NCBI GenBank assembly: GCA_031409655.1 | Contig: JANNXQ010000195.1 | Span: forward strand, 57,251-121,250 | Length of the DNA: 64,000 bases | From: Chthoniobacteraceae bacterium | GTDB lineage: Bacteria > Verrucomicrobiota > Verrucomicrobiia > Chthoniobacterales > Chthoniobacteraceae | Direction of reading: 5' to 3' | Shown here: positions 17,701 to 23,700 of the stretch, one piece after another | How positions within the stretch are numbered: position 1 is the stretch's first letter | How the letters are laid out: the number at the start of each line of letters is the position of its first letter | Position numbers: made by a program

Positions 17701-20700
17701 CGGAACCGGAATATGAGCCGGAGATAACGCCGGCTCCGCGAGCCACTGCCGTGCGGCGGACCTCCCCGAGTAAGTTGCCGACGGTGAAAGCGAGCAAGCC
17801 TGCTCCCGCTTCCGAGCCTGACGTGCGCAAGCCCGCGGCTGTCATTCGCGCCAAAGCCACGCCATTCTAAAGCCCTAAACCAACGATCCTATGAATACGA
17901 ATTCGTCTCTTTCCCGGCGTCATTTCCTCTCAGGTGTCGGCGGTGCTGCCGCACTTTTTGCGGTGCCCGGCGCGTTTGCGGAGGCACTCGTCCAGACTCC
18001 GCGTCAAACCGAGGGTCCTTTCTATCCCGACAAGCTTCCGCTCGATACGGACAATGACCTGCTGATTCTAAACGATGCTCTCACCTCCGCGGTTGGTGAG
18101 GTGGCTTACTTGAGTGGGCGGATTCTCAGTCCGAGCGGTGAACCGGTGCGCAACGCGGTGGTCGAGATCTGGCAGTGCGACGCGAGCGGCGTCTATATTC
18201 ACAGCAAGTCCGGCGGGTCGGCCGCGAAGCGGGACGCGAGTTTTCAGGGCTTCGGTCGCTTCGTCACGGGGAGCACAGGGGAGTATCTTTTCCGCACGAT
18301 CAAGCCCGTGCCTTACGTCCCGCGCACTCCGCATATTCACTTCAAAGTCAAAGCGCGGGGGAAAGAGCTGCTCACGACGCAATGCTATATCAAAGGTCAT
18401 CCGGGTAATGAAAAAGATGGCCTCTGGAAGAGGACGGGTGACGAGAAGATGCGGAGCTTGGTGACGGTGGACTTCGCCCCGCTGCCAGGAGCGAAGGCTG
18501 GAGAACTTGCCGCGCGGTTCGATCTGGTCCTTGGCGTGACGCCGGAGGCTTGAACGGCACGGAAGGCAGCCCCTGAGCGGCGCTAGTCCGGAAGTAGTCA
18601 GGCTGCTAGCCGCGCGTCGCGAGTTTTGCGCCAGCCTGTTCGAGCCAAGCCGCGTCGGGCATGGCGTAGGGGCGGAAGGTTTCGAGGGTGCCTTCCTGTT
18701 CGTTGGCGAGCAGGGCGCGGTGCAGGCCGAGGGTGGCGGCTTTCGGCGTATCGATGAGGCTCGCGGAGTCGTTGGCGCTCATTTGGAAGATGACCCGCAT
18801 TTCAAATTCGCTCAGCGCCTTCCGGCTCATTGCGCGGTTTACGTTGTTAAACGTATCGACGGTCGCGAAGAGATGCAGCCCGTGCGCGCTGCCTTCGGTG
18901 ATGAGTTCGTTGAACTGGGCGCCGGGGTTGCCGGTGCTCTCTTCGTCGCCGGACGAAAAGCTGAAGTCATCTTCATGCCGGAGCTTCTTGAACTTCTGCA
19001 GGCCATGGATGAACAGGAAGACCGCAGGCTCGTTGCGGGAGGATTCTCCGGCGGCGTTGCGAGTCTTCAGATCCGCGGCGAGTCCACCCATCACCTCGGC
19101 AGCATCGTGACCCCGCGCCAGCGTCAGGCGGCCGGGAAGGGCGGCGGCGAGTTGGTCGATAAAGGTGGCTTCGGGCGTCTCGGGATTCGCACCGTGGAGC
19201 AGGATGAACCTCGCGGTCCCGGCGGGATACTGCGCGGCGAGTGCGACGATGGAGACGCCGATCAAAGTCAGCGCGTCGTCGTCGCGCTGACCGACAAGGA
19301 GCAGGTGATTGCCGCTCTGCCGCTGAAAGACCGCTTCGGTCGGACCTTTGATGGAATTGGGCGCGCCGAGCCAGCAGCGACCCACCGCGGGCGCGGTAGT
19401 CGGTTTCGATTCGAGGGCCGCGCGCAAGCGTTCATTCTCGCGGATGTCGGCCGGTGAATTACCTTCGAAAACGATCGGGCCTGGGTGCTGATCGTGATGC
19501 TGCTCGGCGAGTGCGCGCACCTTGTCGAGCCACTGATCGCGCTCTTCATCCGGCAGCCACACGACCTGGAAGGGGCTGTTCCCCTCGACCGCACCGGAGG
19601 CGTCGTTGTAGATGCCTTCGCCCGGTCGCGAGAGGAGGCGCGGCGCGGAATTATTGTCATCCATGATGAGATAGGCGTCGGCTTCGTTGCATTGCAGGGC
19701 CACGCGGATGGCCATCTGACCGAGCGTTGCGCGGGCGAGCGTGTAAGCACCGCCCAGGGTCTGCGAGCCGAGGATCACATGGATGCCAAAGGCGCGGCCC
19801 TGACGCACGATGCGATCGAAGAGCAGCGCGGCGCCTTGCGAGACGTTGTCGTCCTCAACGAAGAACTCCTGGAATTCATCGATCATCAGCAGCGAGCGCG
19901 GCATCGGTTCGGCCCCACCCTCGCGCTTGTAGCCCGCGAGATCCTGCACGCCGAGTTTGCGGAAAATGTCTCCGCGCCGTTTCAACTCATCGTCCACGCG
20001 TTGCAGCACACTGAGCGCAAATTCCCGGTCGCTTTCAATGGCCACGACGCGCGCATGCGGAAGGCGTTTCGTGGCGTAGCACTTAAATTCCACGCCTTTC
20101 TTAAAGTCGATGAGGTAAAACTCCACCTGCTCGGGACTGCACGCGAGGGCGAGGTTCGTGATGATGACGTGGAAGAGCGTGGATTTTCCTGAGCCCGTCT
20201 TGCCGGCGAAAAGCGCATGCTGGCGCGTGCCTTTGCCGATCGCGAGATACTGCAATTTCGTCGCCCCGGTGCGGCCCACGGCGATGCGCAGTTCGGTGGT
20301 CGTGTCGTGCGTCCACATCTCCTCGGGCTTCGGCGCGATCTGGAGGAAAGGCACCTCGACGCGATTCGAGTCGATGCTGGCTTTGCCGATCTTATGGACG
20401 AGCGCAACGGCGAGATCGGCGTCGGGAGGGGCATCGAGCGCGGCCGTGGCCGTGATCGCGGAGTGCGTGGTCTGGACCACGAGCGCGTCGCCCTGACGGC
20501 GGAGGCAGACGCTGCTCTTGCGGAGTTCAGCGGCGACGAAACCATCCGGCATCGACTGCCGCGGATCCCAATGGATGAGCGTGAAGACGCCGCAGCGCGG
20601 ACCGCTGGCGGCGATGCTTTGCAGACGTTTCACCGCGGACTCGCTGAAGCTTGCGGGGAAATCCGCGACGACGAGAAAGTGATATTTCTCCGCCACGCTG

Positions 20701-23700
20701 CCTGCCTTGGCATTGTACTCCGTAATCGTGGCGAACTCATTGCGGAGATACATCTGGATGACTTTCTCGATGTGTTCATTGAGGTCGTCGAGCCGCTCTT
20801 CGATTTGCTCGCGCTGCGTCCAGATGCGGCGGTTGATGAGGCTTTCCTCGTGATCCCCGAGATGCATGAGTCCGGCGAAGTTTTGGCCGAGCCCGACGGG
20901 ATCGATGATCGTGAAGCTGAGCTTCCCCGGCGGCGTGGTGGCGAGCAGGCGGAGGATGGAGTTGTTGATCGTCCCGACGACCGAGGGCTCGCTCGAGTCG
21001 TTCGTTTCAAAGAGGAGCGAACCTTCTGCCGGGAAAGAGAGGGCGAGGGGAATGGAGACGCGGGGCCCGCCGGGCAGGCCGAGGCGGGGATCCTTGGGGC
21101 CGGGCGAAGCGGCCTGCGTGAGGTCGAGTTCCAGCGCGCCAAATTTCACCGCGGGAGCGAAAGCCGTCGGTGCCTTCCATGCTTCCACCATCTCCGAATC
21201 CCACGCTGGGAAGCGCCCCTCGGTCCCCGCTTTTATCTCCTCGATCGCGGCATGCACCGGGAGGATCTCGCGCTGCCAGTCCGCTTCGAGCGCGCCCCAG
21301 CGGGCGGCTTCATCGGCAGCAAAGGCCGCGAGGTCCGCCGCGTGCGCTTCGCTGAGCGTCGTGCGCCGGGTGTCGCTGGCGCTCTGGATCTCGCCGAGCG
21401 CCGCGGTGCGTCCCTCCGCGAGCGTCGTGATTTTCGGCGCGAGCATCTGTTCATTGCGGGCAAAGGCACCGGGGAGTTGCTGCCGGAGTTTTTCCCGCCG
21501 AGCGGCGGCAAATTCACGCTCGAGGTCATCGGCGCGATTCCACTCCTCCTGGATTCCCTGCGCGAGGGCATCGTGCTCCTCCTGGAGGCGCTGCCGCTCC
21601 GCTGCGTGATGCGCCGTGGCCTCCGCGGCACTCGCATCATGCGCCCGCACGGCCATCCCGAGCGCACCCGCCAGCTCCGAAGCCGTGGCTTTCGACTGAC
21701 TGAGCCCGATCCGGTGAATGAGGACGACGAGGATGATCGCAACGAGCGTCGCTCCACCAGCGATCATCGGCGCGTCGGGATTTGCCCGCAGGACGAGCCA
21801 GACGATCAACCCCACGACGGCCAGGATCGGGAGCACCGCCGGGAGCGGCGCGTAGCTAAAGAGACGCGGCAGGGCGAAGCGGCGGAACTGGCCCAGCTTC
21901 TCCTCCGCGACCGCGAGCTGACTCTTGAGTTCAGTGAGTGAAGCCTGGTGATCGCCCGTGCCGATGGGCCCGCCCGCCGGCGCCGTGCGTTCACTGCGCA
22001 GCATCTTCTGAAAGGAACTGCAGCCGCCAAAAGCATTCCACGCGCGCTGCTCGAGCTTGCCATGCGCCGTGCGCTGCTCGCCGAGCCGCGCGACGAATTC
22101 CGCAAAATTCCCGTCCTCCGCCTTCAAGTCCACCGGCAGCGCCTTTTCCGCGCGGAAGTGCCGCATTTGCAGCCCGGTGAGGTACTTCTCCTTTTCATGC
22201 TGCGCCCGGGTCTTGAGCTTTTGCATGCTGTTCGTGTGCTTCTGCTGGATGCCCATCCGCCGTTCCTCGTGAAAGGCCCGGACGCGCGTTTCCTCCGCCG
22301 TCACGCCCTCCTCGGTCTCGGCGACCTGCGCCGCGAGCCGGGTCTCGAGGGCCGCGAGCGCCTCCCGGTTTCGCCGATTCAGCGCGGAACGGCGGATGTT
22401 CAGGTCGCGCGTCAGTTGCTCCTCGCGTTGGGCAAACTCCGCCGCGGTCAGTTTCAGTTTTCCGAAGAGGTCGAGACTCCGGGTGACTCGTAGGTCGATG
22501 TCGCTATTCACAATCGATGCGGACCTTTCGCAAAAGCCCATCCAGTTCCTCGATCACCGCCGCCGCGCGGGCCAGGTGATGCGGGAGATCCTCCAGATAG
22601 GTGTGTTCAAATTCCCGAGCCTTCACGTCCCGCCACGATTCCTTCGTCTGCTCCCACTCGGCCTTCAGCTCCTTCGCCGCCTGCAGCAGATTCGACGCGC
22701 TCGCCCGGCTCATGATCCGGCGGCCTCCGGCGGGGGCCCCGCGAGCTTCGGCGCCGTCTCCGCGTAAGCTTCCAGCGTCTTCTGCGCCTGCACCAGAAAG
22801 GCGATTCCCTTCGGCAGATCGAAATCGAGCACGAAGCGCAAACTCTCGATTCGTTTCAGCAGCGGCTCCGCAGAGGCGTCAAAATCCCGGGTCCACTTCT
22901 TCACCAGGCGCATCTTTTTCTCCGCGTGATCCAGCGCCTCCTTCGCCTTGCGCACCGCATTCTGCTGCGCCGAGATGTTGTCACGCAGATTGGAAAGTTT
23001 CGCACTTAGCAGCTCCTGCTGCGCCGCATCCAGGAGCTTCCGCTGCTTCCGGATTTCCTGCTCCCAGTGGGTCCGCCGATCATTCTGCAGCCACCCGCGC
23101 GTCCGCCGCACCTCGTCGCCCACCTCATCCACGCTGCGATGCGCGTGACCGAGAAAGATGATGAGATTTGCCCGGAACGCCTCCAGCGCGTCGAGCGACG
23201 TGACATGCGCCTGCGGTGCCATGGCCTAGCGCTGATCCAGATATTCCTCGATGCGTTGCGCCTTGCGCAGGAGGTAGGGTGTGTGTTTTTCCGACACCTC
23301 GACGAATTTTTTCAGCACCTTCATCGTCGTCAGGAATTCCTCCGCAAACTTCTCCGCATCCTGATCCTGCCAGGTGCTCCCGAGCGCCGCAAAGCGCGCC
23401 TGCAAAGCCCCCGCCCGGACCTGCACGTCGTCATTGAAGCGCTTCAGCTCTTTGGCGAAGCGCCGCACTTCCTCCGGGTCCATGATCGCTTGAGCCATAG
23501 GGAATATTGCTGGGGTTTTAGGATTCGCTCCAAGGCTACTCGCAGCGTGAGCGCCCGGGATCTTTGCAGGTGGGGAATCTCTATGAACTCCCTGCGAAAC
23601 GCAACGCGCGAGAGCCGCGAGCGGATTGTTGGTTGTCGAAAGGGCAAGACCGGCGATTTTCCCGCCCTTGGAAATTGCATGATCGACGTCCTCTACCAGC

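Follow-up and report, generated by a model that had tools for sequence, protein, structure and literature searches.

Organization and conservation of the operon

The minus strand of the window, i.e., the whole stretch of 64,000 nucleotides that was analysed, carries four tightly coupled open reading frames, all of them confirmed: a WXG100 gene (23226..23498; ORF and Pfam WXG100) for a protein of 90 aa with a W-x-D turn like that of HP0062, a gene for a 170-aa two-helix hairpin with a proline-rich tail and no toxin domain (22710..23222; ORF and structural model), a gene for a 69-aa protein that is a truncated WXG100 paralogue (22504..22713; ORF and HHalign), and the gene of a YueA-like ATPase of the FtsK/HerA family (18606..22511 or ..22541). 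The whole operon measures 4.9 kb. Scans for promoters and terminators and an Rfam search at the operon returned nothing beyond chance.

Two gene starts differ from the first-pass annotation. The WXG100 protein, previously given as 85 aa, starts 15 nt earlier, and residues 1–90 of our query are matched by 76 of 80 relatives and residues 1–89 by the other four. The ATPase frame of 1311 aa (ATG, 22541) does exist, but its start most likely lies at the GTG at 22511, which would yield 1301 aa; this codon sits inside the 3′ end of the 69-aa gene, and its Val is the start of most of the ATPase relatives listed. The same overlap is found in 67 of 75 loci; as the overlapping GTG largely accounts for the invariant Cys at the end of the 69-aa protein, we rejected a functional role for this residue.

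The four genes form a real and conserved operon, with the cultured Chthoniobacter flavus among its carriers. By tblastn, the WXG100, 170-aa, 69-aa, and ATPase genes were recovered in 80, 78, 75, and 74 of 80 WXG100 loci (78–92% WXG100 identity), which reproduces the earlier count of 79, 78, 73, and 74. As an independent check, we used 80 metagenome loci with the WXG100 gene: where at least 900 nt were available downstream, the 170-aa gene followed in 52/52 and the 69-aa gene in 50/52, and all 18 loci with at least 2.5 kb downstream contained the ATPase gene. The annotated lack of any other conserved neighbour also holds: any further gene, transfer genes included, recurs at 8 of 81 loci at most, a count for which about 5 kb on both flanks was available in only 38 of 80 loci.

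Neighbouring genes differ among loci, and relatives are also found on plasmids. In the genome studied here, the operon genes are single copy with a host-like GC3 of 0.77–0.80 (0.67–0.79 in neighbouring genes), and the ATPase occurs in 20 of 40 relative genomes, comprising 18 of 24 from the same family and 2 of 16 from other families. The operon may thus be settled rather than mobile, and its single copy, GC3, and frequency within the family point to a housekeeping-like role more than to a defence island. We could not reproduce the reported presence of WXG100 genes in 804 of 4822 genomes of the phylum (17%); our own sample contained 10 positives among 301 genomes, two of them of the toxin-bearing type. 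Atlas cluster labels suggest that it also occurs in Planctomycetota.

A three-domain ATPase with a predicted membrane hairpin

The ATPase is a single-copy protein that matches Pfam FtsK_SpoIIIE (E 1.6e-31), and the true FtsK of this bacterium is a separate gene on contig C194. Its N-terminal helical arm (residues 1–222; 21846..22511; minus strand, as for all parts of the protein) was modelled as long helices for residues 102–222 and shows a mean identity of 34% among relatives. It leads into a predicted two-helix membrane hairpin (residues 223–241 and 247–265; 21717..21845) with a loop of about five residues and Lys/Arg on both outer flanks. A returning arm, again of long helices in the model (residues ~266–430; 21222..21716; 30% mean identity), precedes three domains, of which the first (residues ~440–720; 20352..21194; 64%) and the third (residues ~1011–1301; 18609..19481; 62%) are degenerate ATPase folds without Walker A, the first being alpha/beta in the model. 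The middle domain (residues ~721–1010; 19482..20351; 85%) is predicted to be active, with Walker A at 20181–20204. Across 52 sequences, Walker motifs are confined to this domain, and its core residues in Walker A, Walker B, and the Arg finger are invariant (100%), as the annotation of intact motifs had implied. The third domain ends in an F-R/K-P-Y motif that is common to three of four plasmid relatives.

The two annotated transmembrane helices were recovered as predictions from hydropathy alone: both segments are present in 55 of 59 ATPases, one further protein is borderline, and three have the hairpin cleanly deleted. These three form one sublineage, and two of them belong to intact four-gene operons. 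No hairpin of equal hydropathy was seen in the ATPases of Caballeronia, Deinococcus, and genomes G160 and G260. Between the anchor and the first ATPase domain, the model has about 165 residues of helix, a stretch that EccC is not known to have.

EccC ranks first in PDB sequence searches and in Foldseek, as noted before; our model of residues 102–1301 (pLDDT 76.8) shows three alpha/beta regions and has a three-domain match to EccC, with 4nh0 as the first hit (E 1.3e-22) at a TM-score of 0.27. The NCBIfam ranking of EccCa, EccCb, and EssC above FtsK likewise stands, though all scores fall far under the curated cut-offs. In PADLOC, the protein matched the defence ATPases SspH and mad8 best, with alignments limited to the middle domain. 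Phylogenetically, the ATPase groups with mobile ATPases lacking transmembrane helices and not with EccC/EssC (support 99/99), in a tree that leaves out Pseudanabaena and seven of 16 near-identical verrucomicrobial rows and to which long-branch warnings apply. A clade with EccC/EssC was rejected (p-AU 0.017; five EccC/EssC-type rows, long branches present), and the closest relatives come from TerY-P/CoCoNuT islands and plasmids. The label "EccC-type" is thus not supported, also given three NTPase-fold domains instead of four, while the broader claim of a self-contained, type VII-related module of WXG100 and FtsK/HerA-family ATPase in a diderm is supported.

The small helical proteins

The 90-aa protein belongs to the WXG100 superfamily, whose members are hairpins of around 100 aa with a central W-x-G; its own motif is W-x-D, as in HP0062. 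It scores 38.6 bits against Pfam WXG100 (cut-off 27.3) and under the cut-off of TIGR03930, and its top PDB sequence match is HP0062 of H. pylori (3fx7, E 3.7e-6).

The 69-aa protein had been described as only weakly similar to WXG100. With a diverse profile of 17 WXG sequences, it is clearly WXG100-like (HHalign probability 91.3%, E 9.5e-7, score 36.0; maximum of 13.1 over 21 coiled-coil windows as null), and its HMM matches the Caballeronia WXG100 protein (E 1.4e-6 in a set of 24 proteins). It is a truncated WXG100 paralogue that retains the W-x-D turn but has lost the beginning of helix 1 and the tail at the C-terminus. No profile match was found to the 76–82-aa protein of the mobile cassette (probability 0.5%; profile of four sequences).

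Our model of the 170-aa protein (pLDDT 93.5; helices 8–76 and 80–156) agrees with the two-helix hairpin annotated before. The earlier verdict that it does not resemble WXG100 at all is too strict, as its C-terminal helix weakly shares the pattern of the WXG100 C-terminal helix (probability 42.7%, score 21.8; null maximum 13.0). Its gene lies where the mobile operon has its toxin, and the protein aligns end-to-end and colinearly, if weakly, with the N-terminal carrier of the toxins (probability 12.7%, score 26.3; 33 controls all scored lower, at up to 22.8). None of 144 closed ORFs of this type exceeds 269 aa and so has room for a toxin-sized tail, and a weak search of 8000 candidates found no longer fused forms; in a separate search, the best 150 matches were 125–244 aa long. 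Elsewhere in the genome there is no second carrier-like or WXG100 gene (best other matches E 0.34 and 0.013) and hence no visible cargo. A fold search (best Z 10.8) returned generic hairpins such as the dynein stalk, SMC, ESCRT-III, and YscO, below the meaningful level for helical proteins, and lent no support to an ESCRT/PspA-like reading.

A probable settled form of the "mobile T7SS"

The class was described in outline in 2012 (PMC3482391, Table 1 note 6), where verrucomicrobia and planctomycetes are listed with a WXG protein and a three-domain ATPase, the middle domain alone active, under the name "mobile T7SS". A toxin-bearing form at TerY-P and type III-A CoCoNuT loci, composed of an EssC-like ATPase, two WXG100 proteins, and a coiled-coil nuclease, is found in section 10 of PMC11090510, so that the annotated "new minimal subtype" is not new in outline. 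The present operon has the same hallmarks, a WXG100 gene beside a YueA-like ATPase with three HerA/FtsK domains and Walker motifs only in the middle one. Its gene order recurs in genomes G160 and G260 and on plasmids of Caballeronia and Helicobacter, all of which have a nuclease-type gene with a small partner in place of the 170-aa gene. We therefore regard it, with little doubt, as a form of the "mobile T7SS" that has settled, bears no toxin, and has a predicted membrane anchor. What appears to be new, judging from sequence, is the predicted mid-stalk membrane anchor, the toxin-free and possibly carrier-like 170-aa protein, and the 69-aa protein as a truncated WXG100.

An EssC-like cassette of TerY-P loci was reportedly already treated by Anantharaman in 2012, as a later paper cites it. 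The stand-alone form may be covered more fully in earlier accounts (Anantharaman 2012, Sutcliffe 2011, Jang 2009) than is acknowledged here. A literature search, with subscription journals mostly outside its scope, found no experimental test of the class and no description of a toxin-free form with transmembrane helices. For WXG/FtsK, the text and five supplements of an essential-gene study of P. limnophila (PMC10632474) name the ordinary FtsK alone.

Possible functions

The most likely reading, which we favour tentatively and would not yet call probable, is a putative inner-membrane exporter of a WXG100 bundle. The four genes would be co-translated, and the three small proteins would assemble into a helical bundle in the manner of an effector and its partners, with the W-x-D turn contributed by the 69-aa protein and the matching C-terminal tail by the 90-aa and 170-aa proteins. 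An ATPase ring would hang from the inner membrane by the two-helix anchor midway in its long cytoplasmic coiled coil, bind the bundle, and, powered by ATP hydrolysis in the middle domain only, move it across to the periplasm via a pore that the ATPase's own membrane helices would form. Since the scheme involves neither passage of the outer membrane nor a toxic cargo, the bundle would serve a structural or signalling role once exported. This reading is favoured by the architecture and gene order shared with the published mobile forms, the grouping with mobile ATPases in the tree, the widely kept hairpin, and the homology to WXG100 seen in the 69-aa protein and in the C-terminal helix of the 170-aa protein. 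Precedents are found in passages of PMC11217815, which describe an EccC with two transmembrane helices and a pore built from six copies as well as EsxB secretion by B. anthracis without EssA, EssB, or EsaA, and in a part of PMC10801868 on composite export signals formed by a helical effector and small partners. Against export stand the hairpin deletions, its absence from the nearest relatives, the rejected EccC/EssC clade, the ~165-residue helix after the anchor, and the lack of visible cargo. In addition, YukC, YukD, EccB, EccD, and LXG had no match in the genome (94.9% complete), confirming the annotated absence of EssB/YukC; the searches found EccB/EccD in C. glutamicum and YukC/YukD/LXG in B. 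subtilis as positive controls.

The same missing channel partners, together with the hairpin deletions and the defence-type PADLOC matches, would suit a cytoplasmic threading switch, which is possible if less favoured. Here, the ATPase ring would pull apart or remodel the WXG100 bundle inside the cell with the hairpin as a mere tether, freeing a nuclease from its immunity partner in the mobile form (abortive infection) and retained for stress sensing or envelope-linked signalling in the toxin-free form. The closest ATPases indeed have no clear transmembrane helices and lie in TerY-P/CoCoNuT islands, and PMC11090510 itself considers a different mechanism likely for them. Such a switch is at odds with the retention of the hairpin in most ATPases, the housekeeping-like profile of the operon, and the absence of any recurrently linked target, sensor, or effector gene.

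True secretion to the outside, via a borrowed outer-membrane channel or with unlinked effectors, is improbable. In the window, a type II secretion operon that includes secretin genes does end about 730 nt from the ATPase gene, and the Helicobacter plasmid form encodes an HNH nuclease along with SMI1/KNR4; of 160 related loci, however, just 3 contain secretin homologues and none contains any of the five remaining neighbours in the window, and we rejected the type II operon as a fixed partner. Nor did we detect an orphan carrier-toxin in the genome or, within the weak search above, a long fused form. A DNA translocase like FtsK or TcpA, which would act in conjugation or segregation and use the small proteins as adaptors, is very improbable: both FtsK and TcpA score significantly in sequence and fold searches but rank well below EccC/EssC, a separate FtsK exists, the linkage to WXG100 genes is fixed, and no transfer gene recurs nearby.

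If the exporter reading holds, the operon could be the simplest type VII machine, a putative inner-membrane export route of LPS-type Gram-negatives for which one membrane protein and three small helical ones suffice. It would be established in Verrucomicrobiota and, going by Atlas labels, in Planctomycetota as well, with an anchor gained or kept apart from that of EccC; we consider this broader view rather unlikely. Passages of the reviews PMC13492133 and PMC3796261 still confine type VII secretion wholly or mostly to Actinomycetota and Bacillota, while comparative-genomics papers mention the Gram-negative class in passing. A non-toxic four-gene unit of this size with natural variants with and without transmembrane helices would allow a cheap test of whether protein can cross a membrane with nothing more than an EccC-like ATPase and WXG100 proteins, and of what task the relatives without such helices have instead in defence islands.

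Comparison with known systems

According to PMC11217815, T7SSa EccC (ESX), T7SSb EssC, and T7SSc–j likewise combine an FtsK-type tandem ATPase, two transmembrane helices, and WXG100 proteins, but the core ATPase of T7SSa–j has four NTPase-fold domains compared to three here. The operon further differs from EccC/EssC systems in its mid-stalk transmembrane pair, separate clade, and scores far under the family cut-offs. T7SSa has EccB and EccD, and T7SSb (Ess/Yuk) has EssB/YukC, EsaB/YukD, and LXG substrates, all without a match in the genome carrying the operon. The best solved-structure match of the WXG100 protein, HP0062 (3fx7, 2gts), has W-R-D in place of W-x-G and has been called a minimal type VII set together with HP0066 of H. 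pylori, while the ATPase homologue of the Helicobacter plasmid has 823 aa, one weak hydrophobic segment, and a linked HNH nuclease.

The TerY-P/CoCoNuT cassette (PMC11090510) shares gene order, N-terminal coiled coil, two WXG100-type proteins, a middle domain that alone is active, and the same ATPase clade. Its ATPase lacks transmembrane helices, in contrast to the predicted hairpin here, and it carries a nuclease, a DNA-mimic-like gene, and VWA/TerY flanks where our operon has a nuclease-free putative carrier and none of these neighbours. The "mobile T7SS" of PMC3482391 has the ATPase architecture, the WXG100 gene beside a YueA-like FtsK/HerA ATPase, and the phyla in common with the operon; that note does not include the transmembrane hairpin, the accessory genes, or the split into toxin-free and toxin-bearing forms, and the operon described here looks settled.

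A conserved four-gene operon

The operon occupies 18606-23498 on the minus strand, is real and conserved, and has its genes separated by 3-nt gaps or joined by overlapping stop and start codons. Its WXG100 gene (23226-23498, minus strand) encodes 90 aa and not the 85 aa of the first-pass annotation, as relatives align from residue 1, while GTG 22511 is the most probable start of the ATPase, giving 1301 instead of 1311 aa, because most listed relatives have that start and the overlap with the 69-aa gene is the same in 67 of 75 loci. The Cys-Glu at the end of the 69-aa protein, which hardly varies, falls on this overlapping GTG start (22504-22511) in those 67 loci.

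The reported co-occurrence of the four genes held up: among 80 genome loci that a WXG100 search retrieved (L001-L080), WXG100 is present in 80, the 170-aa gene in 78, the 69-aa gene in 75 and the ATPase in 74, the absences being mostly contig ends; at L005, the ATPase lies elsewhere in the genome. Across 80 metagenome loci found by a more distant WXG100, those with room carry the 170-aa gene in 52/52, the 69-aa gene in 50/52 and the ATPase in 18/18 cases. The host's own genome has one copy of each gene. As previously noted, no further neighbor is conserved (each is in 8 of 81 loci at most, with long flanks in only 38/80). Two loci (L095 in genome G169, L096 in G289) keep the small-gene trio intact with the ATPase on a separate contig, and L037:6874-7143 is a lone WXG100 gene behind an aspartokinase-like gene in a genome where the ATPase was unmatched with the query used. 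At L023:11000-15600, a ca. 4.7 kb insertion separates the 69-aa gene from the ATPase; judging from motifs, we take it to encode a DNA methyltransferase-like protein, a PEP-CTERM-type protein and a low-complexity repeat ORF. The 30 nt that precede the WXG100 start in L001-L080 are rich in C and A, with no Shine-Dalgarno sequence obvious by eye; the most frequent upstream 7-mers occur in only 11/79 loci.

Around the operon, a type II secretion operon (10512-17870, plus strand) converges on it. Of its two secretin-type genes, one matches in N domains only and the other has the secretin domain; after this type II operon comes a Tat-signal intradiol dioxygenase-like gene (17891-18553, plus). Divergent from the four genes is an ATP-dependent DNA ligase carrying a fused metallo-beta-lactamase-fold domain (23679-26423, plus; found in 0/160 related loci), and farther out lies a 1331-aa protein with passenger-associated transport repeats (29516-33511, minus). 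GC content dips at 44001-52000 (0.56-0.59 versus 0.61-0.70 in the remaining window).

The ATPase was detected in 20 of 40 relatives, comprising 18/24 of the family (genus 3/3) and 2/16 from the order's other families. One phylum sample yielded WXG100 in 10/301 genomes, far below the 17% of the phylum claimed before, and the 170-aa family in 9/301, one of these being a partial and probably chance match. Clusters of the Atlas that lie near the ATPase or the 69-aa protein carry the labels Verrucomicrobiota and Planctomycetota; clustering at 50% identity divides the 170-aa family into 2495 clusters, the top 150 of which span 125-244 aa. Three loci bear labels that may be wrong: one labelled Bacteroidetes inside the verrucomicrobial ATPase clade and two labelled Akkermansia muciniphila (L050, L077, L080).

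The ATPase very probably belongs with mobile type VII relatives

EccC/EssC do top library searches, as the EccC-type description implies, but in libraries that contain no nearer family, and a tree sets the protein apart from them. A plasmid search retrieved much nearer relatives in Rhodococcus, Deinococcus, Caballeronia and Helicobacter (E 7e-69 to 8e-43, compared to ca. 1e-14 for EccCa/EssC), and a middle-domain tree of 34 rows unites TM-bearing ATPases such as ours with TM-less ones at 99/99, EccC/EssC lying outside, though long branches make this support less firm than the figures suggest. A tree constrained to group TM-bearing ATPases with EccC/EssC was rejected (p-AU 0.017). Gain and loss of the membrane anchor are not distinguishable from this tree. 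We assign the operon with high confidence to the mobile type VII systems. Among the plasmid relatives (L091, L092, L093, L120), that of Helicobacter is accompanied by HNH and SMI1/KNR4 genes, those of Rhodococcus include a 1322-aa ATPase adjoining TerD genes and another adjoining Hsp70/GrpE, and that of Deinococcus has several WXG-like genes.

The ATPase is helical over residues 1-430, a stretch that contains a hydrophobic hairpin (223-241, 247-265), and continues with three ATPase-fold domains; the middle one was correctly called intact, as it alone has Walker A, Walker B and Arg finger, none of which varies in 52 sequences. By a hydropathy test, the hairpin passes in 55/59 ATPases, is borderline in one and is cleanly deleted in three of one sublineage; at a stricter threshold, 52 ATPases have two segments in 31, one in 18 and none in 3 cases. 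The deletion (L009, L011, L114) removes ca. 45 residues, and in one of these genomes, G335 (L114), the ATPase and WXG100 genes additionally lie apart. The short loop and the basic residues at both outer flanks of the predicted hairpin suggest that both helical arms and all ATPase domains are cytoplasmic.

Small proteins and the toxin-type cassette

The 90-aa protein exceeds the Pfam WXG100 cut-off. Among solved structures, H. pylori HP0062 is its best relative and shares W-x-D; PMC3397514 reports HP0062 to be dimeric and to have a linked FtsK gene. The resemblance of the 69-aa protein to WXG100 had been called weak, but a match at 91.3% is obtained with a diverse profile (score 36.0, where 21 null windows reach 13.1 at most); the protein has no C-terminal tail, and its helix 1 is shortened at the start. 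The 170-aa protein is indeed modelled as a single long hairpin (pLDDT 93.5); it had been judged wholly unlike WXG100, but its last helix weakly matches the WXG100 C-terminal helix (42.7%, score 21.8 versus 13.0 over 24 windows).

Toxin-type cassettes, found on plasmids of Caballeronia and Helicobacter as well as in genomes G160 and G260, follow the same gene order with two genes in the 170-aa slot: WXG100, a long coiled-coil protein (ending in an HNH nuclease in Helicobacter), a small partner, a 76-82-aa protein and the ATPase. Over its full length, the 170-aa profile weakly matches the N-terminal carrier of the Caballeronia-type protein (120 homologues; 12.7%, score 26.3, where the best of 30 shuffles scores 22.8, the reversed control 14.4 and two ATPase coils 13-14), which is suggestive of homology; no toxin-sized extension occurs among 144 closed ORFs of the 170-aa type (0 above 269 aa). 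As G160 and G260, from the host's own phylum, carry the TM-less cassette, toxin-type and toxin-free forms both exist in one phylum. These cassettes (L112, G160:C2, 8700-18000; L113, G260:C73, 5200-11400) adjoin VWA genes and, in G160, also genes whose translations read as phosphatase- and kinase-like.

Possible function and comparison with known systems

We tentatively favor a role in exporting a WXG100 bundle through the inner membrane, with the hexameric ATPase, the bundle and the topology all presumed from family knowledge. Excerpts of PMC11217815 describe an ESX pore built from two TM helices per subunit, as predicted here, and one Gram-positive subtype secreting without EssA/EssB/EsaA. 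Export is weakened by one lineage's clean loss of the hairpin, a sister group without TM helices, the long stalk, and a host genome with no match not only for YukC, as annotated, but also for EccB, EccD, YukD, LXG or any second carrier gene. A threading switch acting in the cytoplasm is nearly as likely. Full secretion through a borrowed outer-membrane channel is improbable, with a secretin near only 3/160 related loci, and DNA translocation is very unlikely.

The proposed new minimal subtype had already been noted in outline as a mobile T7SS in PMC3482391, where a table note credits verrucomicrobia and planctomycetes with WXG and a three-domain ATPase active only in its middle domain. PMC11090510 presents a TM-less ATPase that has a long coiled coil and is accompanied by two WXG100 proteins, a coiled-coil nuclease and a DNA-mimic-like gene, referring to Anantharaman 2012 for the stand-alone form, and a section of PMC4978471 terms WxG plus FtsK a minimal type VII set. 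In the literature searched, we found neither experimental work on the class nor an account of a toxin-free TM-bearing form. Subtypes in the relevant portion of PMC11217815 are Gram-positive only, PMC3935865 confines WXG100 nearly to two phyla under a filter requiring W-x-G, and a passage of PMC3796261 has the system absent from LPS diderms. That the operon is a one-membrane-protein exporter in LPS diderms seems to us less likely than not. Compared to these systems, our additions are the TM-anchored, toxin-free anatomy and the interpretation of the two accessory genes.
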